Of a stretch of 34,917 nt of DNA, positions 3,089 through 14,353 are shown in pieces. Numbering within the stretch: position 1 is the stretch's first letter; every line of letters begins with the position of its first letter. The notes beneath the pieces are model-generated. The model ran no database searches. It was given only the letters and a program-made list of their open reading frames with translations, and had not been told where the DNA came from. Origin of the DNA: a virus (Duplodnaviria; Heunggongvirae; Uroviricota; Caudoviricetes); IMG/VR virus record IMGVR_UViG_2541047813_000003, positions 1 to 34,917 of that record. One strand, written 5' to 3'. Position numbers and translations under genes: made by a program.

Positions 3089-3249
3089 ACACTCTCCCGT
3101 TTATTATTTATCTCCTCAGCCAGTCGCTGGGCTTTCAGCGGATTTCGGATAACAGAAGGCCCGGGAAATACCCAGCCTCGCTTTGTAACGGAGTAGACGA
3201 AAGTGATCGCACCTACCCGGATATTATCGTGAGGATGCTTCATCGCCAT
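3085..3249 (-). CDS. Small ORF translationally coupled to exo (lambda orf60a-like)
   Basis: [33 protein letters not shown]...; ATG at 3243 overlaps the exo stop (ATGA), with an alternative in-frame ATG at 3249; stop overlaps the start of the TGT-like gene. Below the ORF-track size cutoff, found by manual translation. Confidence 0.45.
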
Positions 3250-3920
3250 TGCTCCCCAAATACAAAACCAATTTCAGCCAGTGCCTCGTCCATTTTTTCG
3301 ATGAACTCCGGCACCATCTCGTCAAAACTCGCCATGTACTTTTCATCCCGCTCAACCACGACATAATGCAGTCCTTCACGCTTCATACGCGGGTCATAGT
3401 TGGCAAAGTACCAGGCATCTTTTCGCGTCACCCACATGCTGTACTGCACCTGGGCCATGTAAGCTGACTTTATGGCCTCGAAACCACCGAGCCGGAACTT
3501 CATGAAATCCCGGGAGGTAAACGGGCATTTCAGTTCAAGGCCGTTGCCGTCACTGCATAAACCATCTGGAGAGCAGGCGGTACGCATACTTTCGTCGCGA
3601 TAGATGATCGGTGATTCAGTAACATTCACGCCGGAAGTGAACTCAAACAGGGCTCTGGCGTCGTTCTCGTACTGTTTTCCCCAGGCCAGCGCTTTAGCGT
3701 TAACTTCCGGAGCCACACCGGTGCAAACCTCAGCAAGCAGGGTGTGGAAGTAGGACATTTTCATGTCAGGCCACTTTTTTCCGGAGCGGGGTTTTGCTAT
3801 TACGTTATGAACTTCTGAAGCTGTGATGACGCCGAGCCGTAATTTGTGCCACGCATCATCCCCCTGTTCGACAGCTCTCACGTCGATCCCGGTACGCTGC
3901 AGGATAATGTCCGGTGTCAT
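3240..3920 (-). CDS. exo: Lambda exonuclease (Red alpha)
   Basis: 226-aa translation essentially identical to phage lambda Exo as I remember it; overlaps the bet stop. Confidence 0.95.
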
Positions 3921-4702
3921 GCTGCCACCTTCTGCTCTGCGGCTTTCTGTTTCAGGAATCCAAGAGCTTTTACTGCTTCGGCCTGTGTCAGTTCTGACGA
4001 TGCGCGAATGTCGCGGCGAAATATCTGGGAACAGAGCGGCAATAAGTCGTCATCCCATGTTTTATCCAGGGCGATCAGCAGAGTGTTAATCTCCTGCATG
4101 CTTTCATCGTTAACCGGAGTGATGTCGCGTTCCGGCTGACGTTCTGCAGTGTATGCGGTATTTTCGACAATGCGCTCGGCTTCATCCTTGTCATAGATAC
4201 CAGCAAATCCGAAGGCCAGACGGGCACACTGAATCATAGCTTTATGCCGTAACATTCGTTTGGGATGCGACTGCCACGGTCCCGTGATTTCTCTGCCTTC
4301 GCGGGTTTTGAATGGTTCGCGGCGGCATTCATCCATCCACTCGGTAACGCAGATCGGATGATTACGGTCCTTGCGGTAAATCCGGCATGTACATGATTCA
4401 TTGTCCTGCTCAAAGTCCATGCCATCAAACTGCTGGTTTTCATTAATGATGCGGGACCAGCCATCAACGCCCACCACAGGAACGATGCCGTTCTGCTTAT
4501 CAGGGAAGGCGTAAATTTCTTTCGTCCACGGATTAAGGCCGTACTGGTTGGCGACGATCAGCAATGCGATGAACTGCGCATCGCTGGCATCACCTTTAAA
4601 TGCCGTCTGACGAAGAGTGGTGATCAGTTCCTGTGGGTCGACAGAATCCATGCCGACACGTTCAGCCAGCTTCCCGGCTAGCGTTGCGAGTGCTGTACTC
4701 AT
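3917..4702 (-). CDS. bet: Red beta single-strand annealing protein
   Basis: 261-aa translation essentially identical to lambda Bet ([37 protein letters not shown]...). Confidence 0.95.
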
Positions 4703-4707
4703 CCGTT

Positions 4708-5004
4708 TTATACCTCTGAATCAATATCAACATGGTGGTGAGCAATGGTTTCAACCATGTACCGGATGTGTTCTGCCATGCGCTCCTGAAACTCAACATC
4801 GTCATCAAACGCACGGGTAATGGCTTTTTTGCTGGCCCCGCAGCGTTGCAAATGATCGATGCAGAGTGATTCAAACAGGTGCTGTGGAAGACCTTTTTCC
4901 ATGTCGTCTGCCAGTTCTGCCTCTTTCTCTTCACGGGCGATCTGCTGGTAGTGACGCGCCCAGCTTTGAGCCTCAAGACGATCCTGAATGTAATAAGCGT
5001 TCAT
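4708..5004 (-). CDS. gam: Gam, RecBCD inhibitor (short 98-aa form)
   Basis: 98-aa translation matches lambda Gam ([34 protein letters not shown]...). An in-frame TAA lies upstream of the ATG, so no long N-terminal extension is encoded. Confidence 0.9.
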
Positions 5005-5079
5005 GGCTGAACTCCTGAAAATGGCTGTGAAAATATCGCCCGCGAAATGCCGGGCTGATTAGGAAAACAGGAAAGGGGA

Positions 5080-5370
5080 TTAGTGATTCAGGCCGTTGCC
5101 GCGCCCGTCGAGAAAAACTTCCACGAGCAAATCACGGGTATAAGTGCGCTCGATGCCGCGATGCAGATAAAGCCGTCCGCGTAAATTAGCTGATGCAGTC
5201 CAGGTACCATCTTTGTGTTTGACCAGCATTCCTGGCATGACCGCACCTCGATTAACGGTCTGCGTTCCGTAATGTTGATGAACCATAAAAACTCCTGCCC
5301 GTAAGCTGGGCTGCTGAACATATAGAGACTTCTGCGCGTATTCAGGCGGTGGATGGCCGCCGGTTGTCAT
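5080..5370 (-). CDS. Hypothetical protein, first gene downstream of predicted pL (lambda N/kil position)
   Basis: 96 aa from the ATG at 5370 (GAGGCGG RBS about 8 nt upstream). The ORF track extends the frame to a TTG at 5490, adding an arginine-rich stretch (RLREVRGVKRTRERR). Function unknown. Confidence 0.4.
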
Positions 5371-5508
5371 AACTAAGCCGCCTCGTTGAAACGACTGAGG
5401 TATGAAGTGTTGAGTTGATTTCAGCTGGTCACACCGACGTTCACGCGTCCGCTTCACCCCTCGCACTTCCCGAAGCCTGCTGAAATTCAAGCTGCGGACC
5501 TAAGCGGT

Positions 5509-5558
5509 CATCGCAACGGTGAATCAGGTGGTTGCCGTATCGTTGTGTTGTTGCGATG
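5509..5558 (-). promoter_or_regulatory. Stem-loop at the 5' end of the predicted pL transcript
   Basis: On the minus strand CAUCGCAAC ...32 nt... GUUGCGAUG (9-bp perfect inverted repeat), beginning at about +1 of the predicted pL transcript; no U-tract follows, so not a terminator. Confidence 0.3.
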
Positions 5559-5563
5559 AATTT

Positions 5564-5592
5564 ATTTAAAACTATAGTTGTTTTGTTGTCAA
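5564..5592 (-). promoter_or_regulatory. Predicted leftward early promoter pL
   Basis: Minus strand TTGACA (plus 5587-5592), 17-bp spacer, TTAAAT (plus 5564-5569); sits between the repressor-operon terminator and the leftward early genes. Confidence 0.5.
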
Positions 5593-5600
5593 CAACAAAA
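5581..5600. promoter_or_regulatory. Candidate oL operator palindrome overlapping pL -35
   Basis: TTTTGTTG-TCAA-CAACAAAA, 8-bp perfect inverted-repeat arms; further GTTGTT copies across 5577-5640; related to the palindrome at pR. Confidence 0.4.
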
Positions 5601-5729
5601 GTTGTTTTATTGGTTGTTTTAGATGTAACTGGTTGTATTTAGGATGGGTTTATTTTGTGACTTGCATCGCATAGCGATAACTGAAGGGAGATTGTGGTGG
5701 TTTTTTGAACGGTATACGTGATGAGGGGA

Positions 5730-5762
5730 GGGGATAAAAGAAAACCCGGCACGGTGGCCGGG
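5730..5762 (-). terminator. Intrinsic terminator ending the repressor operon
   Basis: Minus-strand hairpin CCCGGC-CACCGU-GCCGGG followed by UUUUCUUUUAU, starting 6 nt after the stop of the 5768-6709 gene. Confidence 0.6.
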
Positions 5763-5767
5763 TATCT

Positions 5768-6709
5768 TTATTCGAATGGAAGATCTATTTGCCTTTGAGG
5801 ATTCAACTGTTTTTTTACATGCTCAATTTCGAATATGGTTTTTATGGCATCTCCGATCATATATTGAGTTACTTTTAAATCTACAAGTAACATATCACCT
5901 TTAGAAAAATTTAAGGTGTTGTTATCAATATCGCTGATGAATTTCTGGTCTTTTATTTCAGCCAAAAAGCTACTGGCACCATCAGAAAACCGCCACCGGC
6001 TTCCTTCATTGAAGGAAATATTTTTAATTTGAAGGGCTTTCTCTACTGTGTACTCTGAAATTATTGATTCTGCTGGTAGATTGACTTTGAAATAATGTGC
6101 TTCTTGCTTGTTGATCGTCATGAATGTCAAACCATCATCGACAGTAGAGGCAAAGCTGTCAATGCCTTCCTGCTCTAATGGCTTACTTATAACTTCTTGT
6201 AATGAAGAGCGAAGTTTAATATTTTTATAAAGTTCAATAACGTTACTGTCGTAGATCTCGCTTTCGTCATCAACAAAGACTTCGATGTTGCTATCAGGCA
6301 AATTGTGTAATTTTTTTATTTTCCTTGGACCTATCCATTTTATCAGTTGAATTAGGCCTTTGCATATTTTTTCTTTAGAACCAGGACAGAGTCCAATAAA
6401 AGCAATCAAATTCGCAGCGGCTGTTGCTGAATCGCCGGATAAAAAATCAACAGCCTGTTTGAACCAAGATGTAGATGAGGCAACCAGATCTATTCCAAAT
6501 GAGCCAGCTTTAAATGATGCATTGACTTTTACAGAAACAACAGTCTTGTTTCCGTAGAGAGTTTTACCGGCTTCCTCTAATGCATCTGATAGTGATAGAA
6601 GGGCAGGAGCAAGGTCTCGCACGTTCATTTCATGCGTTTCCAGTGCCGGACCGTCGTATACTATCCTGAACTTCATATCATTGGTTTCCGAATTGTTGCC
6701 CGCATCCAT
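5768..6709 (-). CDS. Uncharacterized protein (about 313 aa) in the rexAB-equivalent slot, co-oriented with cI
   Basis: ORF 5768-6721 (GTG at 6721); first ATG at 6709 with AGGTGA RBS, alternative ATG at 6676. AT-rich relative to flanks. No recognisable catalytic or membrane motif; the sequence does not remind me of RexA/RexB. Confidence 0.75.
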   Translation of the reverse strand: MDAGNNSETNDMKFRIVYDGPALETHEMNVRDLAPALLSLSDALEEAGKTLYGNKTVVSVKVNASFKAGSFGIDLVASSTSWFKQAVDFLSGDSATAAANLIAFIGLCPGSKEKICKGLIQLIKWIGPRKIKKLHNLPDSNIEVFVDDESEIYDSNVIELYKNIKLRSSLQEVISKPLEQEGIDSFASTVDDGLTFMTINKQEAHYFKVNLPAESIISEYTVEKALQIKNISFNEGSRWRFSDGASSFLAEIKDQKFISDIDNNTLNFSKGDMLLVDLKVTQYMIGDAIKTIFEIEHVKKQLNPQRQIDLPFE

Positions 6710-6782
6710 TATGGCATTCACCTGATCACATATACAGTTAATTTACGATATTGTCTTAAATCTTAAAACTTCTATTGTATGG

Positions 6783-7472
6783 CTACCCATGCTTCCTATA
6801 CGTCTGCGGCATGCTCCCAATAACCTTACCGAAGATGAACACCCGGTTCATCTCGTCTTTCTCGATCGGGTCCCAAGGTGAGTAGCTCTTGTTATCAGAG
6901 ATAACCAGCAGCTTATCCTTCATCATTTGCAGACGCTTTACATGGGCTGTGTCGTCGTACAGAAACGCATAGATACCATCACCGTCGAAAGATTTAACCG
7001 TGATATCAACGAACAGCAGATCACCTGGTTCGATCGTTCCTGACATGCTGTCACCGCGTACGTTAATGATACGGATATTTTCCGCCTTCCTGCCATCGAA
7101 CATGTGACGAGCATCGTCAAACGAATACTCAACCGAACGTAGAACTTCTACAAACTCACGGTTGATGACTCCCGGCCCGGCACTCACTTCGATATCAAGA
7201 ACGTCAATCTTAAAGTATTTGGAATGGCTGACAGTTGTTTGTATTGGTTGCACTGTACTGTCTGACATATTTCCAACGCCAGAAGATAACCATTCTGCGC
7301 GCACACCCAAAGCGTTCGCGATCTCCACGATTTTAGTTGTTTGGTTAGCTTTCCCTGTTTCGATTTTCTGAATAGCTGCTTGGCTAACCCCGACCAAATC
7401 CCCAAGCGCCTTTTGTGTAAGGCCTCGCGCTAATCTGGCTTCTTTAAGTCTTTCTGAGAGTGTTGTTTTCAT
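6783..7472 (-). CDS. Prophage repressor (CI-type; N-terminal HTH plus C-terminal S24 LexA-like peptidase domain)
   Basis: 229 aa from the ATG at 7472: HTH (LTQKALGDLVGVSQAAIQKIE), Ala-Gly cleavage site (EVSAGPG), catalytic Ser (GDSMSGT) and Lys (VKRLQ). No SD before the ATG, and pRM -10 is 6 nt upstream, so the mRNA is probably leaderless as for lambda cI. Confidence 0.85.
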   Translation of the reverse strand: MKTTLSERLKEARLARGLTQKALGDLVGVSQAAIQKIETGKANQTTKIVEIANALGVRAEWLSSGVGNMSDSTVQPIQTTVSHSKYFKIDVLDIEVSAGPGVINREFVEVLRSVEYSFDDARHMFDGRKAENIRIINVRGDSMSGTIEPGDLLFVDITVKSFDGDGIYAFLYDDTAHVKRLQMMKDKLLVISDNKSYSPWDPIEKDEMNRVFIFGKVIGSMPQTYRKHG

Positions 7473-7478
7473 AGTCCA

Positions 7479-7507
7479 AATGTACAACCAAGGTTTTATT
7501 TCATCAA
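7479..7507 (-). promoter_or_regulatory. Predicted repressor maintenance promoter (pRM-like)
   Basis: Minus strand TTGATG (plus 7502-7507), 17-bp spacer, TACATT (plus 7479-7484), ending 6 nt before the cI ATG. Confidence 0.45.
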
Positions 7508-7514
7508 ACGAAAA

Positions 7515-7537
7515 TGGTTGTTGACTAAAAACAACCA
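7515..7537. promoter_or_regulatory. Candidate oR operator palindrome overlapping pR -35
   Basis: TGGTTGTT-GACTAAA-AACAACCA (8-bp perfect inverted arms); an adjacent 10-bp palindrome AACCATGGTT (7532-7541) and AACCAAGGTT (7487-7496) share the same half-site. Confidence 0.45.
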
Positions 7538-7549
7538 TGGTTTTAATCT
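7521..7549 (+). promoter_or_regulatory. Predicted rightward early promoter pR
   Basis: TTGACT (7521-7526), 17-bp spacer, TAATCT (7544-7549); followed by a GGAGG RBS and the cro-like ATG at 7577. Confidence 0.55.
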
Positions 7550-7576
7550 TGATTCAAATTAACCACGGAGGTTGTT

Positions 7577-7807
7577 ATGAACCCAGCCATCAAAACAGCG
7601 ATCAATATCGTTGGTTCACAAAAGAAACTAGGCGCTGCCTGCGAAGTTTCACAGCAGGCCGTCTATAAGTGGCTTCACAACAAAGCAAAGGTATCCCCTG
7701 AACATGTCGGCAGCATTGTTACGGCTACTGGTGGAGTAGTGAAGGCATACCAGATTCGCCCGGATCTTCCGAAGTTGTTTCCACACACTGAAAAGAACGC
7801 AGCTTAA
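7577..7807 (+). CDS. Cro-like HTH regulator
   Basis: 76-aa ORF divergent from the repressor gene, with an HTH-like segment (QKKLGAACEVSQQAVYKWL). Confidence 0.8.
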   Translation: MNPAIKTAINIVGSQKKLGAACEVSQQAVYKWLHNKAKVSPEHVGSIVTATGGVVKAYQIRPDLPKLFPHTEKNAA

Positions 7808-7819
7808 ATTTCCATTTCA

Positions 7820-7833
7820 CGCTCTTTAACAAT
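7820..7833 (+). promoter_or_regulatory. boxA-like element (nutR-position)
   Basis: CGCTCTTTAACAAT just after the cro-like stop; matches the boxA consensus CGCTCTTTA and the rrn-type boxA GCTCTTTAACAAT as I recall them. No convincing boxB hairpin follows. Confidence 0.4.
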
Positions 7834-7876
7834 AAGCAATCAACTTAACAGTCAATTCAAACTAAAGGAGTCAATT

Positions 7877-8416
7877 ATGCAACCACTTACATACCAACAG
7901 ACTAGCGGATTTAGCCCGACTGCGGTGATAAATCGTTCTCAAACAAAACAAGCTCCAGGCCACGAAAAAATCCGTGATGCCGTCCGCGCCTGGTCGGCTG
8001 TAGATAATCAGGATGTCGTTGCCGCACTCATTGTGAATGAGTATCGGGAGCAGGGCGGCGGCACCATCGATTTCCCTGATGATGTCAGCCGTGCACGCCA
8101 GAAGCTGTTCCGCTTCCTCGATAACAAATTCGATTCTGAAAAATACCGAAATAACGTGCGTGAACTGACCCCGGCAATTCTGGCGGTACTACCGCTGGAA
8201 TATCGCGGTTACCTAGTTGAGCAGGATAGCTTCATGGCTCGGCTGGCTGAAATGGAAAAGGAACTCAGTGAGGCAAAGCAGGCGGTCATTCTCAACGCAC
8301 CACGCCACCAGAAACTGAAGGAGATGAGTGAAGGCATTGTGTCGATGTTTCGAGTGGACCCGGATCTGGCTGGTCCACTGATGGCGATGGTCACCACCAT
8401 GCTGGGGGCAATATGA
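7877..8416 (+). CDS. Hypothetical protein in the cII position (possibly YdaT-like)
   Basis: 179-aa ORF with strong RBS (AAAGGAG); contains an EYREQGGG segment reminiscent of YdaT-type proteins that follow Cro-like genes in some E. coli prophages (recollection only). Confidence 0.6.
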   Translation: MQPLTYQQTSGFSPTAVINRSQTKQAPGHEKIRDAVRAWSAVDNQDVVAALIVNEYREQGGGTIDFPDDVSRARQKLFRFLDNKFDSEKYRNNVRELTPAILAVLPLEYRGYLVEQDSFMARLAEMEKELSEAKQAVILNAPRHQKLKEMSEGIVSMFRVDPDLAGPLMAMVTTMLGAI

Positions 8417-8502
8417 CAGGTTCAGAAATGGCGAAAGCCGGTCTGCTGGAACAGAACCGACTTTCAGGTGCAAATCGTAACACACTCATTGCGGGAGGAA
8501 TT

Positions 8503-9432
8503 ATGGCAAACACTGCTGAGATATTCAATTTTCCAGTGCCGGATGCGGCACAAAAGGAGCCGCGCGTGGCAGATCTCGATGATGGTTATACGCGCATTGC
8601 AAATGAGTTGCTGGAAGCTGTGATGCTGGCCGGATTAACACAGCACCAGCTTCTGGTCTTTCTGGCTGTCATGCGCAAAACATATGGCTTTAATAAAAAA
8701 CTGGATTGGGTTAGCAACGAGCAACTTTCCGAATTAACCGGGATATTGCCGCACAAGTGTTCTGCTGCAAAAAGTGTTCTGGTAAAGCGTGGGATTTTTA
8801 TTCAGAGCGGGCGGAATACCGGCATTAATAATGTGGTCAGTGAATGGTCTACATTACCCGAATCAGGTAAGAAAAATAAAGTTTACCTGAAAGAGGTAAA
8901 TTTACCTGAATCAGGTAAAAAAAGTTTACCCAAATCAGGTAAAGGCGTTTACCCGAATCAGGTAAACACAAAAGACAAACTAACAAAAGACAATATAAAA
9001 CCTTTTTCGTCCGAGAATTCTGGCGAATCCTCTGACCAACCAGAAAACGATCTTCCTGTGGTGAAACCGGATGCTGCAATTCAGAGCGGCAGCAAGTGGG
9101 GGACAGCAGAAGACCTGACCGCCGCAGAGTGGATGTTTGACATGGTGAAGACCATCGCGCCATCAGCCAGAAAACCGAATTTTGCAGGGTGGGCTAACGA
9201 TATCCGCCTGATGCGTGAACGTGACGGACGTAACCACCGCGACATGTGCGTGCTGTTCCGCTGGGCATGCCAGGACAACTTCTGGTCCGGTAACGTGCTA
9301 AGTCCGGCCAAACTCCGCGACAAGTGGACCCAACTCGAAATCAACCGTAACAAGCAACAGGCAGGCGTGACAGCTAGCAAACCAAAACTCGACCTGACAA
9401 ACACAGACTGGATTTACGGGGTGGATCTATGA
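8503..9432 (+). CDS. O: Replication initiator protein O (lambda-type)
   Basis: N-terminus MANTAEIFNF...VADLDDGYTRIANELLEA resembles lambda O; ATG at 8503 has a strong GGGAGGA RBS (the ORF track extends upstream to 8413); the C-terminal half is near-identical to lambda O; iterons lie inside the gene. Confidence 0.85.
   Translation: MANTAEIFNFPVPDAAQKEPRVADLDDGYTRIANELLEAVMLAGLTQHQLLVFLAVMRKTYGFNKKLDWVSNEQLSELTGILPHKCSAAKSVLVKRGIFIQSGRNTGINNVVSEWSTLPESGKKNKVYLKEVNLPESGKKSLPKSGKGVYPNQVNTKDKLTKDNIKPFSSENSGESSDQPENDLPVVKPDAAIQSGSKWGTAEDLTAAEWMFDMVKTIAPSARKPNFAGWANDIRLMRERDGRNHRDMCVLFRWACQDNFWSGNVLSPAKLRDKWTQLEINRNKQQAGVTASKPKLDLTNTDWIYGVDL
8853..8966. repeat. Replication origin iterons (ori-lambda-type) inside O
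   Basis: Four to five copies of an about 19-bp unit TTTACCYGAATCAGGTAAA with internal dyad TTACC...GGTAA (8853-8871, degenerate 8881-8900, 8901-8919, 8925-8943, 8948-8966), followed by an A-rich stretch (8967-9010). Confidence 0.8.
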
Positions 9433-10130
9433 AAAACATCGCCGCACAGATGATTAACTTTGACCGTGAGCAGATGCGCCGGATCGCCAACAACATGCCG
9501 GAACAGTACGACGAAAAGCCGCAGGTACAGCAGGTAGCGCAGATAATCAACGGTGTATTCAGCCAGTTACTGGCAACTTTCCCGGCGAGCCTGGCTAATC
9601 GTGACCAGAACGAACTGAACGAAATCCGCCGCCAGTGGGTTCTGGCTTTCCGGGAAAACGGGATCACCACGATGGAACAGGTGAGCGCCGGAATGCGTGT
9701 TGCCCGTCGGCAGAATAGACCATTTCTGCCATCACCCGGGCAGTTTGTTGCATGGTGCCGGGAAGAAGCATCCGTTACCGCCGGGCTGCCAAACGTCAGC
9801 GAGCTGGTTGATATGGTTTACGAGTATTGCCGGAAGCGTGGTCTGTATCCGGATGCAGAGTCTTATCCGTGGAAATCAAACGCGCACTACTGGCTGGTTA
9901 CCAACCTGTATCAGAACATGCGGGCCAATGCGTTGACTGACGCGGAATTACGGCGCAAGGCTGCCGATGAACTGTCCTGTATGACCGCGCGAATTAACCG
10001 TGGTGAGGCGATACCTGAACCAGTAAAACAACTTCCTGTCATGGGCGGTAGACCTCTAAATCGTGCACAGGCTCTGGCGAAGATCGCAGAAATCAAAGCT
10101 AAGTTTGGGCTGAAAGGAGCAATTGTATGA
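9429..10130 (+). CDS. P: Replication protein P (DnaB helicase loader)
   Basis: 233-aa translation essentially identical to lambda P; ATG overlaps the O stop. Confidence 0.95.
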   Translation: MKNIAAQMINFDREQMRRIANNMPEQYDEKPQVQQVAQIINGVFSQLLATFPASLANRDQNELNEIRRQWVLAFRENGITTMEQVSAGMRVARRQNRPFLPSPGQFVAWCREEASVTAGLPNVSELVDMVYEYCRKRGLYPDAESYPWKSNAHYWLVTNLYQNMRANALTDAELRRKAADELSCMTARINRGEAIPEPVKQLPVMGGRPLNRAQALAKIAEIKAKFGLKGAIV

Positions 10131-10496: not shown

Positions 10497-10829
10497 ATGA
10501 ATCCTTATATTTATCTTGGTGGTGCAATACTTGCAGAGGTCATTGGTACAACCTTAATGAAGTTTTCAGAAGGTTTTACACGGTTATGGCCATCTGTTGG
10601 TACAATTATTTGTTATTGTGCATCATTCTGGTTATTAGCTCAGACGCTGGCTTATATTCCTACAGGGATTGCTTATGCTATCTGGTCAGGAGTCGGTATT
10701 GTCCTGATTAGCTTACTATCATGGGGATTTTTCGGCCAACGGTTGGACCTGCCAGCCATTATAGGCATGATGTTGATTTGTGCCGGTGTGTTGGTTATTA
10801 ATTTATTGTCACGAAGCACACCACATTAA
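10497..10829 (+). CDS. emrE: SMR-family multidrug efflux transporter EmrE
   Basis: 110 aa from the ATG at 10497 (MNPYIYLGGAILAEVIGTTLMKFSEGF...), matching E. coli EmrE with conserved Glu14 and four TM segments; the ORF track starts at an upstream TTG. Confidence 0.9.
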   Translation: MNPYIYLGGAILAEVIGTTLMKFSEGFTRLWPSVGTIICYCASFWLLAQTLAYIPTGIAYAIWSGVGIVLISLLSWGFFGQRLDLPAIIGMMLICAGVLVINLLSRSTPH

Positions 10830-12962: not shown

Positions 12963-13968
12963 ACAGGTCAGCGTTTGTTTTTTGTTGTTGGGTAGCGGTT
13001 TTTATGGGGGTTCCCAGGTTTTTAGTAAACCACTCAACAACTCTGTTTATAATAATTGGCTGATACCATGTATTATCGCCATGCTCAGCCCCTTCTACCA
13101 GAACGTACTCAGCGTTATCGCCGTTCTTCTTCAACATCCTGAATAGTTTGGCGCTTTGCTCAGGTGAAACCAGAGTGTCTTTGCTACCATGCATAATAAG
13201 AAATGGGGGTTTTACTCCTTTCATATGTCCGATTGGACTGGCGTTTAGCGCTTTTTCTTTTGACGCTGTTATGGGGGCTCCCGCAAAACTTCTGAATGCA
13301 GGGCCATTGATCATTAAGGCTTCGGTTACGGCAGGAGATCGATGAACCTCCTGCACTGATTCAGGGAACCCCTCGCCAATATTCAACAAGTCAGAAATCC
13401 CATAAAGTGTGGCAACTGCCTGAACATCTGCTGATTGCTGAAGAAAGTCACCTTTATTAAAGGTTTTGTCACCATTTGTAGTTCCCATCATCTGGGCAAG
13501 CCATCCACCGGCAGAGTCACCCAGAACTCCGATTCTTTGAGGATCAATCCCATAATCGCTGGCATGTTCTCTCAAGTAACGTATTGCAGCTTTCCCATCC
13601 TCAACTGGTGCTGGAAATGTATCAGGAATTGTTCTGTATTCTACAGCGGCCACAACAAAACCAGCTTCAGCCAGAGCCATTCTCATTTCAATAAATTTGT
13701 CATGTTCAGAAGACATGAATCCGCCGCCGGGATAATAAATAATGGCTGGTTTTAAATCATTTGTTCGCGGGACAAGAACTGACATGTGAAGCTGTCTGAC
13801 AGAACGAGTTCCTTTTATCTGGGAATAAACAACATCACCAATGAGATCGACCTGGTTTCTGGTGGGTGAAACACTAATGATATCTGCACCCGGGGTGTAA
13901 CCAGGAAAATTAGTCTGGACAGGTGTTGCACAACTCCCGACCGACATGGCCATTGACATACCATACAA
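12961..13968 (-). CDS. Alpha/beta-hydrolase fold esterase/lipase (HGGG-type)
   Basis: 335-aa ORF with oxyanion-hole motif YYPGGGF, nucleophile elbow GDSAGG and a C-terminal His (AEHGDN); N-terminus ambiguous (see findings). Confidence 0.8.
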   Translation of the reverse strand: MYGMSMAMSVGSCATPVQTNFPGYTPGADIISVSPTRNQVDLIGDVVYSQIKGTRSVRQLHMSVLVPRTNDLKPAIIYYPGGGFMSSEHDKFIEMRMALAEAGFVVAAVEYRTIPDTFPAPVEDGKAAIRYLREHASDYGIDPQRIGVLGDSAGGWLAQMMGTTNGDKTFNKGDFLQQSADVQAVATLYGISDLLNIGEGFPESVQEVHRSPAVTEALMINGPAFRSFAGAPITASKEKALNASPIGHMKGVKPPFLIMHGSKDTLVSPEQSAKLFRMLKKNGDNAEYVLVEGAEHGDNTWYQPIIINRVVEWFTKNLGTPIKTATQQQKTNADL

Positions 13969-14353
13969 TAGTGTTGCAGATGATAATATCTTGTTAATTT
14001 TTATGTTTTACATGCCTTGACTTATCGGATGAAATTCTCTTACTGAATTTAACGGCAGTTTAATAGCAGTACAACTCGTGGTAGCTAGGGAAATATCCCA
14101 GTCGTGGTTAAGGTTGTACTTGACGGCTATTATTTCAACAATGCTTAAAGTGAGAGCTTAAGGTTATGCGTATGTTTTACAGTCCGAGTAGATTCTGACC
14201 AATAGCTTCTTTGTATAATTCTGTCAGAAATAAATCTTGGCTTGCATGAAGTTTGAGACCTTATCTTGTTTGATTATGAATAATCAATTCGCCATAATTG
14301 TATCACCGGAGCCTGAACAACTCCTGTGACTTCTGCGCTAAACGGGGACGTTT

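Follow-up and report, generated by a model that had tools for sequence, protein, structure and literature searches.

In phage lambda, the cI repressor activates pRM from a position at about -42. In phage 434, the operators are 14 bp long, with the outer 5 + 5 bp contacted and the central 4 not, and there are three of them in each of OR and OL (PMC1636474). In prophage CP-933P, the cargo beside the repressor gene is a toxin-antitoxin pair (PMC8630535, PMC9986795); the cargo of the prophage considered here is a defence candidate. Our locus lies in a stretch of 34,917 nucleotides (34.9 kb, hereafter the window) that makes up IMG/VR record IMGVR_UViG_2541047813_000003. On our reading, positions 7476-7560 and the pL region quite probably form a lambda-type lysis/lysogeny switch, in which a repressor of the phage-434 structural class would act at operators that are 14-bp dyads.

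The module is carried by 1,524 of 5,426 complete E. coli genomes (~28%) and by at least 588 IMG/VR contigs, and its relatives span about 15 enterobacterial genera. RefSeq labels its proteins merely “S24 family peptidase” and “transcriptional regulator,” and the cI start given in some phage records is wrong, making the gene too long. This immunity type is ordinary for lambdoid phages, yet without an earlier description; a literature search by phage names and lambdoid operators gave neither an account of it nor any binding, footprint, transcription-start, or induction results, and a full-text search with the operator 14-mers matched only unrelated eukaryotic papers. Viable phage isolates exist with exactly this repressor, and a PhiR phage panel that has it is mentioned in a preprint (bioRxiv 10.1101/2025.11.03.685801), which leaves the induction route unstated. 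Since the proposed mechanism matches what phage biology would lead one to expect, its general interest is modest. For more utilitarian goals, the operator definition (A-C/A-A-A-C-Y, in a 14-bp dyad) and the promoter geometry should make it possible to type such prophages by immunity, to predict homo- and heteroimmunity, to annotate leaderless cI genes correctly, and to design reporters and inducible constructs.

Genes and promoters of the switch region

The genes and promoters are as follows.

5564-5592, minus strand: pL, -35 TTGACA at 5592-5587, -10 TTAAAT at 5569-5564 (17-nt spacer) or TAAATA (18-nt spacer)
5744-5763, minus strand: terminator-like GC-rich hairpin at the end of the putative cI-cargo operon, 7-bp stem with 6 GC pairs, followed by a T-run
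5768-6721, minus strand: cargo gene in the rexAB-equivalent slot, 317 aa (PADLOC PDC-S42, 3.4e-86; phrog_3243)
6783-7472, minus strand: cI-type repressor, 229 aa, N-terminal 434-like helix-turn-helix (HTH) and C-terminal S24 autocleavage domain
7479-7507, minus strand: pRM, -35 TTGATG at 7507-7502, 17-nt spacer, -10 TACATT at 7484-7479
7521-7549, plus strand: pR, -35 TTGACT at 7521-7526, 17-nt spacer, -10 TAATCT at 7544-7549, inferred +1 near 7556
7577-7807, plus strand: Cro, 76 aa, YdaS/P22-Cro family (Pfam PF15943, 4.1e-17; PF14549, 8e-5)
7877-8416, plus strand: CII equivalent of the YdaT family (Pfam PF06254, 1.4e-29; phrog_163, CII-like activator)

The repressor matches Pfam HTH_3 (5.5e-13) and Peptidase_S24 (PF00717, 1.2e-18, profile positions 5-116 of 116). 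In a phmmer search against the PDB, its best match is the 434 repressor (1per/2or1, E 4.5e-9, residues 5-68); 434 Cro (E 2.7e-7) and UmuD/UmuD' are also among the matches. Its recognition helix is SQAAIQK. An initial sequence-only reading had called the protein LexA-like (S24), and the S24 domain, the Ala-Gly bond and the Ser/Lys dyad are all found, in the motifs VSA98-G99PG (Ala98-Gly99), G-D-S142-M (Ser142) and HVK179RL (Lys179). Because this LexA-like autocleavage module is intact, RecA-stimulated cleavage in the SOS response is the probable route of induction, and the S24 motifs make SOS inducibility a reasonable expectation. As to the start of the gene (ATG at 7472), about 18 relatives keep a TAnnTT -10 at a distance of 6-7 nt from this ATG and lack a Shine-Dalgarno sequence. 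A longer 251-aa reading frame from the ATG at 7538 was considered and rejected; in-frame stops break it in 13 of 18 relatives, in favour of the earlier proposal of a leaderless cI. Sequence support is strong for a leaderless cI mRNA from pRM, whose +1 would be the A of the ATG at 7472. The cargo gene is probably cotranscribed with cI from pRM, and the content of this slot differs among homoimmune phages.

Both pR (TTGACT-17-TAATCT) and the divergent pRM (TTGATG-17-TACATT) were read where the sequence-only reading had placed them, with pRM ending 6 nt (7478-7473) before the cI ATG. A generic sigma-70 scan called none of pR, pRM and pL, because the pR -10 matches at only 3 of 6 positions and pRM at only 8 of 12 overall; by the same scan the region holds 2 promoter-like sites versus 5.9 in shuffles, i.e., fewer. 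The promoter hexamers by themselves being not above chance, it is positional conservation in relatives that supports them. In all relatives compared, the pRM -10, as TAnnTT, adjoins OR3 (see below) and is separated from the ATG by 6-7 nt; TTGAYT and TAnnnT of pR are kept at the same positions; and TGACA immediately past OL2 is kept in 19 relatives. The third promoter, pL, lies about 1.9 kb from pRM/pR and is directed leftward into kil, gam, bet, and exo, with an ambiguous -10, there being two candidates. The stretch downstream of pL has no recognised N gene, and the pL leader (5375-5557, minus strand) gave no signal as a structured put/nut-like RNA (z = -0.13). An Rfam scan of 4900-8500 returned nothing relevant.

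In CP-933P, YdaT has the published operator TTGATT-N6-AATCAA, which lies where cro ends. Here the cro 3' end and the interval from cro to ydaT have only 3-mismatch matches to it (7775-7792 and 7826-7843); the nearest 2-mismatch match is upstream of cro, at 7549-7566. Matches overall numbered 24 against 21.4 expected, not above chance, and YdaT here may be of different specificity.

Predicted operator sites and a proposed switch

The proposed recognition unit is a 14-bp dyad, ACAAC-N4-GTT(G/T)T, with the half-site GTTGT/ACAAC; scores below are matches out of 10 to ACAAC-N4-GTTGT, and dyads are listed without strand.

7484-7497: OR3, ACAACCAAGGTTTT, 9/10, centred at -18.5 from pRM
7508-7521: OR2, ACGAAAATGGTTGT, 8/10, right half strong, left half (ACGAA) weak but conserved
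7531-7544: OR1, ACAACCATGGTTTT, 9/10, occupying the pR spacer and sharing one base, the first, with the pR -10
5568-5581: OL1, AAAACTATAGTTGT (minus strand ACAACTATAGTTTT), 9/10, in the pL spacer, adjoining the -10
5592-5605: OL2, ACAACAAAAGTTGT, 10/10, a perfect dyad 24 bp from OL1, overlapping the first base of the pL -35
5623-5636: candidate OL3, ATGTAACTGGTTGT, a strong half (TGGTTGT) and a weak half, 31 bp from OL2

OR thus comprises three sites and a candidate fourth (considered below), and OL two clear dyads and a candidate third with one good half. Centre-to-centre spacing is 24 bp from OR3 to OR2 and 23 bp from OR2 to OR1. OR2 adjoins the pRM -35, overlaps the first base of the pR -35, and has its centre at about -42 from both promoters, so that the geometry is mirror-symmetric: from pR, OR1 is at -18.5 and OR2 at -41.5; from pRM, OR3 is at -18.5 and OR2 at -42.5. 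From pL, OL1 is at -17.5 and OL2 at -41.5. OL has no third dyad at precisely +23/24 bp from OL2, and the other options have one good half each, either at +31 (5623-5636) or overlapping OL2 (5604-5617). The +31 candidate resembles OR2 (A.G.AAATGGTTGT), and in relatives a lone ACAACCA half-site is kept at -31 or about -42 from OL2.

These sites are peculiar to the switch. The sequence ACAAC-N4-GTTKT occurs four times in the window (starting at 7484, 7531, 5568, and 5592), always in OR or OL, where 0.17 would be expected, and none of 100 shuffles reached four; all five matches of at least 9/10 in the window likewise fall in OR or OL. Since matches of 8/10 are also found elsewhere in the window, the assignment of OR2 rests on its position and conservation.

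The same dyads are found at loci with the helix SQAAIQKIE in Klebsiella, Kosakonia, Enterobacter, Providencia, Morganella, Photorhabdus, Izhakiella, Brenneria, Erwinia, Serratia, Pantoea, and Xenorhabdus; upstream of cI their positions are fixed, and downstream of it they form a pair, spaced by 23-24 bp, whose distance from cI varies. When the loci are aligned across genera, conservation falls on the half-sites, the promoter hexamers, and the Shine-Dalgarno sequence. A matrix of 120 half-sites gives A1 in 120/120, A3 and A4 in 120/120, C5 in 119/120, and Y6 in 113/120, though with the sites chosen by similarity to the consensus, the conservation at positions 1-5 is partly circular. Within the population, a comparison of 80 homoimmune contigs found variable columns in 1 of 50 half-site positions versus 46 of 148 elsewhere (p = 2.8e-6), the OR3 half-sites being invariant in all 80 and those of OL1 in 78. 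The dyad centres vary both across genera and within the population, and the half-sites do not; the OR3 centre varies freely among genera (CGAG, TGAA, TACA, CAGA, and others).

Heteroimmune relatives give the complementary picture. The ACAAC-type dyad has no match in the two heteroimmune loci L085 and L003. In heteroimmune Lambda_4C10 the flanks are homologous, and exactly the OL segment (5557-5650) and the segment with the cI N terminus, OR, and cro are replaced. That phage has a 14-mer of its own, ATACG-CTTG-CGTAT, at the position equivalent to OR3, with related sites at OR1 and OL, and its helices are AQPTIWR in cI and AQPTVWR in Cro. The helices of both Cro and cI co-vary with operator type. 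A GTTGTGTTGTTG run at 5542-5553 lies in the flank shared with the heteroimmune phage and hence is not specific to immunity.

The proposed switch, in which the binding of the repressor, the order in which its sites fill, cooperativity, activation, the start points of transcription, and inducibility are all predicted from the DNA, would operate as follows. A cI-like dimer would bind the 14-bp dyads through the half-site A-(C/A)-A-A-C-Y, reading the outer 5-6 bp and leaving the centre essentially free. OR1, in the pR spacer, and OR2, on the pR -35, would jointly block pR. The conserved weakness of one OR2 half makes it probable that filling of this site relies on cooperativity with OR1, and at about -42 from pRM, adjoining the -35, OR2 would be in the activating position for that promoter. 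OR3 covers the pRM core, so that cI synthesis would be shut off at high repressor levels or on binding of Cro. At pL, OL1 and OL2 would mirror the geometry of OR1 and OR2 on pR. Cro, with a recognition helix (SQQAVYK) that resembles that of cI, most likely competes for the same sites; given that the helices are similar and not identical, we only infer this shared preference.

Alternative readings and a candidate fourth operator

The sequence-only reading is borne out in taking this for an immunity region, in which pRM and pR diverge and have a half-site in common with pL, some distance away. Its shared half-site, here GTTGT/ACAAC, is right, but the palindromes that it drew as units are unsupported, with the halves mispaired. 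The 8-bp inverted repeat that it saw on the pR -35 is real, but 9 bp long (ATGGTTGTT at 7514-7522 and AACAACCAT at 7530-7538, with 7 nt between the arms), and it consists of the right half of OR2 and the left half of OR1. The two palindromes said to flank it, AACCAAGGTT at 7486-7495 and AACCATGGTT at 7533-7542, are both present, but the latter overlaps the right arm of the repeat; they are the centres of OR3 and OR1, respectively. At pL, there is indeed a palindrome over the -35, a perfect 9-bp inverted repeat (TTTTGTTGT at 5581-5589 and ACAACAAAA at 5592-5600) whose span, 5581-5600, overlaps the minus-strand TTGACA at 5592-5587, and the further copies expected there are found as GTTGT at 5601-5605, 5613-5617, and 5632-5636. 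That the repressor reads such longer palindromes (TGGTTGTT-N7-AACAACCA on the pR -35, AACCATGGTT, AACCAAGGTT, and TTTTGTTG-TCAA-CAACAAAA at pL) we regard as very improbable, even though each is a perfect inverted repeat in the window and the GTTGT/ACAAC parts of the 7514-7538 repeat are kept across genera. Among homoimmune contigs, AACCATGGTT reads AACCATAGTT in 70 of 80 (position 7539 is A, not G), and 74 of 78 break the pL palindrome TTTTGTTG/CAACAAAA, in which 6 of 16 arm columns vary and natural variants exist at 5585 and 5587. Across genera, the OR3 centre is often nonpalindromic (e.g., ACAACTGAAGTTGT and ACAACTACAGTTGT), and extension of the arms past GTTGT/ACAAC matches in just 9 of 16 relatives, the level of chance. 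Moreover, the everted GTTGT-N9-ACAAC of OR becomes N10 at OL and in some relatives, ACAAC-N4-GTTGT being constant; OR3 has no everted partner; and dimers of the 434 class bind 14-bp dyads (PMC1636474).

The same 7514-7538 repeat might instead act as a hairpin in RNA or DNA, for instance to terminate or attenuate leftward transcripts of the pRE type, with no role as protein sites. A terminator scan flags it on both strands, and its RNA fold has -9 kcal/mol (z = -3.2). From the opposite perspective, the stem is rich in AT and contains just 3 GC pairs, 7 of 16 relatives do not keep the arm extensions paired, termination between pRE and cI would thwart the establishment of lysogeny, and the arms are fully accounted for as OR2 and OR1 halves. 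The hairpin was rejected, and we give it scarcely any credence. Least probable of all, to the point of being negligible, is that low-complexity, T/G-rich intergenic DNA threw up the repeats by chance. The AT richness of the region and the lack of a significant hit in the generic promoter scan would suit this reading, but the count of sites was reached by none of the 100 shuffles, the sites are kept in about 15 genera and absent in heteroimmune relatives, and the half-sites are invariant at the p value given above. Chance origin is refuted by these three findings.

A different sort of doubt is whether the 14-mers are real and the switch logic is unlike that of lambda, with no cooperativity or no pRM activation, as is reported for 933W, or with a four-site or looping arrangement, made by the extra sites, as the essential unit, as has been proposed for CP-933P. 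Pointing this way are a conserved fourth match of at least 9/10 over the cro Shine-Dalgarno, the in-phase lone half-sites at -31 or -42 from OL2, the four equally spaced repeats in the OR of CP-933P (PMC8630535), and a published abstract according to which the 933W repressor is noncooperative at adjacent sites (PMC3317979). However, the 23/24-bp spacing, the weak OR2, and its position at about -42 from pRM, adjoining the -35, match the lambda design, and nothing in the sequence requires a different logic, which we consider unlikely. The preferred reading remains the lambda-type switch acting through 14-bp dyads.

The fourth match is the single unexpected feature of the region.

7562-7575: candidate fourth operator, ACCACGGAGGTTGT, 9/10, its centre at +12.5 relative to pR and at 31 bp from OR1

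It is the sole match of at least 9/10 in the window beyond OR1, OR3, OL1, and OL2; the cro Shine-Dalgarno, GGAG, makes up its middle 4 bp; and of 15 relatives that have the complete OR layout, 11 show a dyad of at least 9/10 there, with differing half-site variants. A tentative possibility, which we rate as rather doubtful, is that it is a working operator, holding the GGAG in its noncontacted centre and making up, with the half-sites upstream of OL2, a four-plus-three architecture. If so, one 14-bp element at +12 of pR would double as the ribosome-binding site and as a site for repressor or Cro, and four-plus-three sites (for looping or a roadblock, with the half-sites 31 or 42 bp upstream of OL2) would stand in place of the classical three-plus-three. 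With the module in about 28% of complete E. coli genomes, such a design would be among the commonest switches in that species.

Comparison with known systems

Phage 434 provides the closest repressor of solved structure, its DNA-binding domain being homologous to the N-terminal domain of cI here (E 4.5e-9). The two systems share 14-bp operators that start ACAA, with the outer 5 + 5 bp conserved and the central 4 variable, several sites in both OR and OL, and a C-terminal domain of the autocleaving type. The 434 recognition helix, however, is TQQSIEQ, which differs from SQAAIQK at 5 of 7 positions, only the first Gln being kept. The half-site here has a fixed C as its fifth base and a pyrimidine as its sixth, whereas 434 conserves only the outer four, and 434 Cro is a paralogue of the repressor DNA-binding domain, unlike the YdaS/P22-Cro family protein found here. 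In addition, the cI N-terminal domain is <60% identical to that of every classical phage in the collection compared. By these helix and identity differences, the predicted immunity specificity is distinct, 434-like in kind but not imm434.

The organization is that of lambda: divergent pRM/pR, three operators at 23-24 bp with the weak middle one by the pRM -35, a probably leaderless cI mRNA, matching operators at a pL some 2 kb off, a cargo slot at the rexAB position, and flanking exo, bet, gam, kil, O, and P. Lambda operators, in contrast, are 17 bp long, the lambda repressor belongs to another HTH family and has an N-terminal arm, and here no N gene is recognised and a YdaT-family protein takes the place of CII. 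With CP-933P and Rac, our prophage shares the YdaS-family Cro, the YdaT-family CII equivalent, a probably leaderless repressor gene, divergent pRM/pR, and a pL analogue; their repressors are PaaR2 or RacR, and the one here, an S24 protein of the cleavable type, has a 434-like HTH, just as their operators are 18-bp GTTTAGTAA-type repeats and those here ACAAC-N4-GTTGT. A heteroimmune sibling module is found in Lambda_4C10, phage 4A7, and the Raoultella prophage L085, which have a homologous cI C-terminal domain and flanking DNA about 90% identical. In this Lambda_4C10 type, gene order and the 5+4+5 operator layout are kept at matching positions, and the helices are AQPTIWR/AQPTVWR with half-sites of the ATACG/ATAGC type as opposed to ACAAC. 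The sibling pair SQAAIQK/ACAAC versus AQPTIWR/ATACG, on one scaffold and one layout, offers a natural specificity swap for working out HTH recognition rules.

Early region and the cI-pL slot

The sequence of the window includes a lambdoid prophage early region, arranged as follows.

3240-3920, minus: exo
3917-4702, minus: bet
4708-5004, minus: gam
5080-5370, minus: kil
about 5560-5650: intergenic region after kil
5768-6721, minus: 317-aa gene; lies between pL and cI, the rexAB-equivalent slot
6783-7472, minus: repressor gene (cI), 229 aa, with HTH_3 and Peptidase_S24 domains
7577-7807, plus: cro-like gene, 76 aa
7877-8416, plus: CII equivalent, YdaT family
8413-9432, plus: O
9429-10130, plus: P

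In PADLOC the 317-aa gene hits PDC-S42, a defence candidate (E 3.4e-86); it has no Pfam domain. In homoimmune phages, those sharing this repressor specificity, the same slot is either empty (PhiR34_1) or filled with other cargo annotated GevT/GevA or HipA-like, and hence it is a variable defence/cargo hotspot. Directly past the replication genes is an EmrE-like small multidrug resistance gene (10497-10829, plus; PF00893, 2.1e-35), the position it also has in the DLP12 prophage of E. coli K-12.

The predicted operator unit

The sequence-only reading took long palindromes as the operators: a perfect inverted repeat at the pR -35, which is in fact 9 bp (ATGGTTGTT / AACAACCAT, 7514-7522 / 7530-7538); AACCAAGGTT at 7486-7495 and AACCATGGTT at 7533-7542; and, over the minus-strand TTGACA of pL, TTTTGTTGT / ACAACAAAA (5581-5589 / 5592-5600). 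An unbiased repeat search returned a 15-nt direct repeat, ACAACCA(A/T)GGTTTTA, at 7484 and 7531, 47 bp apart, which as a dyad is ACAAC-N4-GTTTT. The pattern ACAAC-N4-GTTKT occurs 4 times in the 34.9-kb window against 0.17 expected, a count reached by no shuffle. These 4 sites and a fifth between the repeats are the predicted operators.

5568-5581: OL1, pattern match
5592-5605: OL2, pattern match
7484-7497: OR3, pattern match
7508-7521: OR2, ACGAAAATGGTTGT, one perfect and one weak half, midway between 7484 and 7531
7531-7544: OR1, pattern match

From centre to centre, the OR dyads are spaced 24 and 23 bp and the OL pair 24 bp. With these 14-bp dyads as the units, the 9-bp inverted repeat pairs the right OR2 half with the left half of OR1, and the two palindromes of 10 bp coincide with the centres of the putative OR1 and OR3.

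Four independent comparisons separate the dyads from the palindromes: population polymorphism, cross-genus footprint, heteroimmune swap, and spacing. Among 80 contigs encoding an identical repressor, 1 of 50 half-site columns is variable versus 46 of 148 others (p = 2.8e-6). Moreover, position 7539 is A rather than G in 70 of the 80, destroying AACCATGGTT, and 5585 and/or 5587 is changed in 74 of 78, destroying the pL palindrome, so that palindromes proposed as operators are mostly broken where the repressor is unchanged. With one genome scanned per species, the helix SQAAIQKIE is kept in loci of Klebsiella, Kosakonia, Enterobacter, Providencia, Morganella, Photorhabdus, Xenorhabdus, Izhakiella, Brenneria, Erwinia, Serratia, and Pantoea (repressors 33-80% identical). 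In each of these loci the dyads recur with their distances from the cI start unchanged; in nearly all, two more dyads spaced 23-24 bp lie downstream of cI, how far varying with the cargo. No ACAAC-type dyads were found in a Raoultella relative, which has another helix. Conservation in the cross-genus alignment falls on the half-sites, the Shine-Dalgarno sequence (SD), and the -35 and -10 hexamers, while the OR3 centre is highly variable (CGAG, TGAA, TACA, CAGA, CTTG). The internal spacing of ACAAC-N4-GTTGT is constant everywhere, but that of the everted GTTGT-N9/N10-ACAAC is not. The consensus from 120 half-sites is A1, C/A2, A3, A4, C5, Y6, a7, positions 1-5 being partly circular because sites were picked by similarity.

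In the heteroimmune phage Lambda_4C10, with flanks about 90% identical to the window, the replaced segments are exactly 5557-5650 and the cI N-terminus/OR/cro block. At the OR3-equivalent position is another 14-mer, ATACG-CTTG-CGTAT; one related site lies at the OR1 position and two, spaced 25 bp, lie at OL. The helices are AQPTIWR (cI) and AQPTVWR (Cro), versus SQAAIQK and SQQAVYK in the window. Modules of this type retain the 5+4+5 layout with ATACG/ATAGC-type half-sites (Lambda_4C10 locus L003, 4065-4157 and 1668-1706; Raoultella prophage L085, 2919-2982). A separate perfect palindrome, CAAAAC-AC-GTTTTG, lies there between the OR3 and OR1 equivalents. Since the GTTGTGTTGTTG run (5542-5553) is inside the flank common with Lambda_4C10, it falls outside the operator set.

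With one mismatch allowed in the ten specified positions, the sole extra match in the window is a candidate fourth operator, ACCAC-GGAG-GTTGT (7562-7575), whose central 4 bp are the cro SD. It is at +12.5 from pR and 31 bp from OR1, and 11 of 15 relatives match at least 9 of 10 positions, the perfect half being the left in some and the right in others. Upstream of OL2 (window 5604-5640; relatives L084-L114) is a lone ACAACCA half-site, conserved at -31 in Escherichia, Klebsiella, Kosakonia, Enterobacter, Serratia, and Brenneria and about -42 in Morganella, Providencia, Photorhabdus, and Xenorhabdus, one helical turn apart. The imperfect half (AAAAC/GTTTT) of OR1 and OL1 adjoins the -10 of pR/pL in every genus examined, a conserved asymmetry that may stem from constraint on the promoter or from tuning of affinity. 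These features may represent extra low-affinity sites and tuned affinities. A perfect TTGATT-ATGAAT-AATCAA (14270-14287), far from the immunity region in the intergenic gap 13968-14298, matches exactly the operator consensus published for YdaT of CP-933P, and a copy with 2 mismatches sits at 7549-7566, in the stretch from the pR -10 to the cro SD.

Promoters and the probable leaderless cI start

Read directly, the promoter elements, like the repeats, are all where they had been placed.

7521-7526 and 7544-7549, plus: pR, -35 TTGACT, 17 nt, -10 TAATCT
7507-7502 and 7484-7479, minus: pRM, -35 TTGATG, 17 nt, -10 TACATT, 6 nt from ATG 7472
5592-5587, minus: pL -35, TTGACA

Because the hexamers are weak by consensus, and a generic promoter scan called none of the three and found fewer promoter-like sites than in shuffles, independent support was needed. 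In relatives, a TTGAYT hexamer shares the last base of OR2, TAnnnT shares the last base of OR1, TGACA lies immediately past OL2, and, in all of them, TAnnTT adjoins OR3, the cI ATG being 6-7 nt away. A 251-aa cI ORF from ATG 7538, inside OR1, is used in the PhiR34_1 record, and some phage records call a cI of this length (PV340559.1, L002 1983-2738); we reject it, since in-frame stops break the extension in 13 of 18 relatives, and the 229-aa cI, probably leaderless as first proposed, is the conserved form.

With starts inferred at 7472 (pRM), about 7556 (pR), and about 5557 (pL), OR1 and OR2 are at -18.5 and -41.5 of pR, OR3 and OR2 at -18.5 and -42.5 of pRM, and OL1 and OL2 at -17.5 and -41.5 of pL, a predicted design that is mirror-symmetric. 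In lambda, cI at OR2 activates pRM from about -42. Between pL and kil is a leader of about 180 nt (5375-5557, minus), with no unusual RNA fold (z = -0.13) and, in heteroimmune phages too, a conservation of about 90%; it contains a short ORF (5395-5490, minus) with the Arg-rich stretch GVKRTRERR, and no N-like gene was recognised in this phage.

The proposed switch and known systems

The reading that sequence comparison supports best combines a lambda-type switch with 434-class components. By occupying OR1 and OR2, repressor dimers would block pR, OR2 probably being filled cooperatively, as its weak half is conserved, and would probably stimulate the transcript from pRM, which is predicted to be leaderless; OR3 would limit pRM, and OL1 and OL2 would block pL. 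Cro, with a helix similar to that of cI, would compete for the same sites. In its C-terminal domain the repressor carries Ala98-Gly99, Ser142 within GDSM, and, 37 residues further on, Lys179, and RecA-stimulated self-cleavage would inactivate it. In the sequence-only reading, the immunity region, the half-site, and the S24 repressor stand, as probably does the leaderless cI, but the operator units do not.

The immunity module is present in 1,524 of 5,426 complete E. coli genomes. Its DNA-binding domain is at least 99% identical in only six recent phage records (next best, 65%) and in no classical phage compared, and a description of the ACAAC-N4-GTTGT operator or its immunity type was not found in the searchable literature. 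CP-933P and Rac have YdaS/YdaT-type Cro and CII equivalents, as here; for CP-933P, experiments have shown that the repressor gene is leaderless and that analogues of pRM, pR, and pL exist (PMC8630535, PMC9986795), but its operators differ. Among solved structures, the repressor comes closest to the DNA-binding domain of the 434 repressor (E 4.5e-9) and to 434 Cro. Operators of 434 span 14 bp, of which the outer 5+5 are contacted and the middle 4 are not, and OR and OL hold three each (PMC1636474); the predicted sites recover this 14-bp architecture, with three at OR and two clear dyads at OL. Of the 434 recognition helix, just the first Gln is kept, and therefore a different specificity of the same class is indicated: the working mode appears like that of lambda and 434, with a repressor within the 434 structural class that is nevertheless not imm434.
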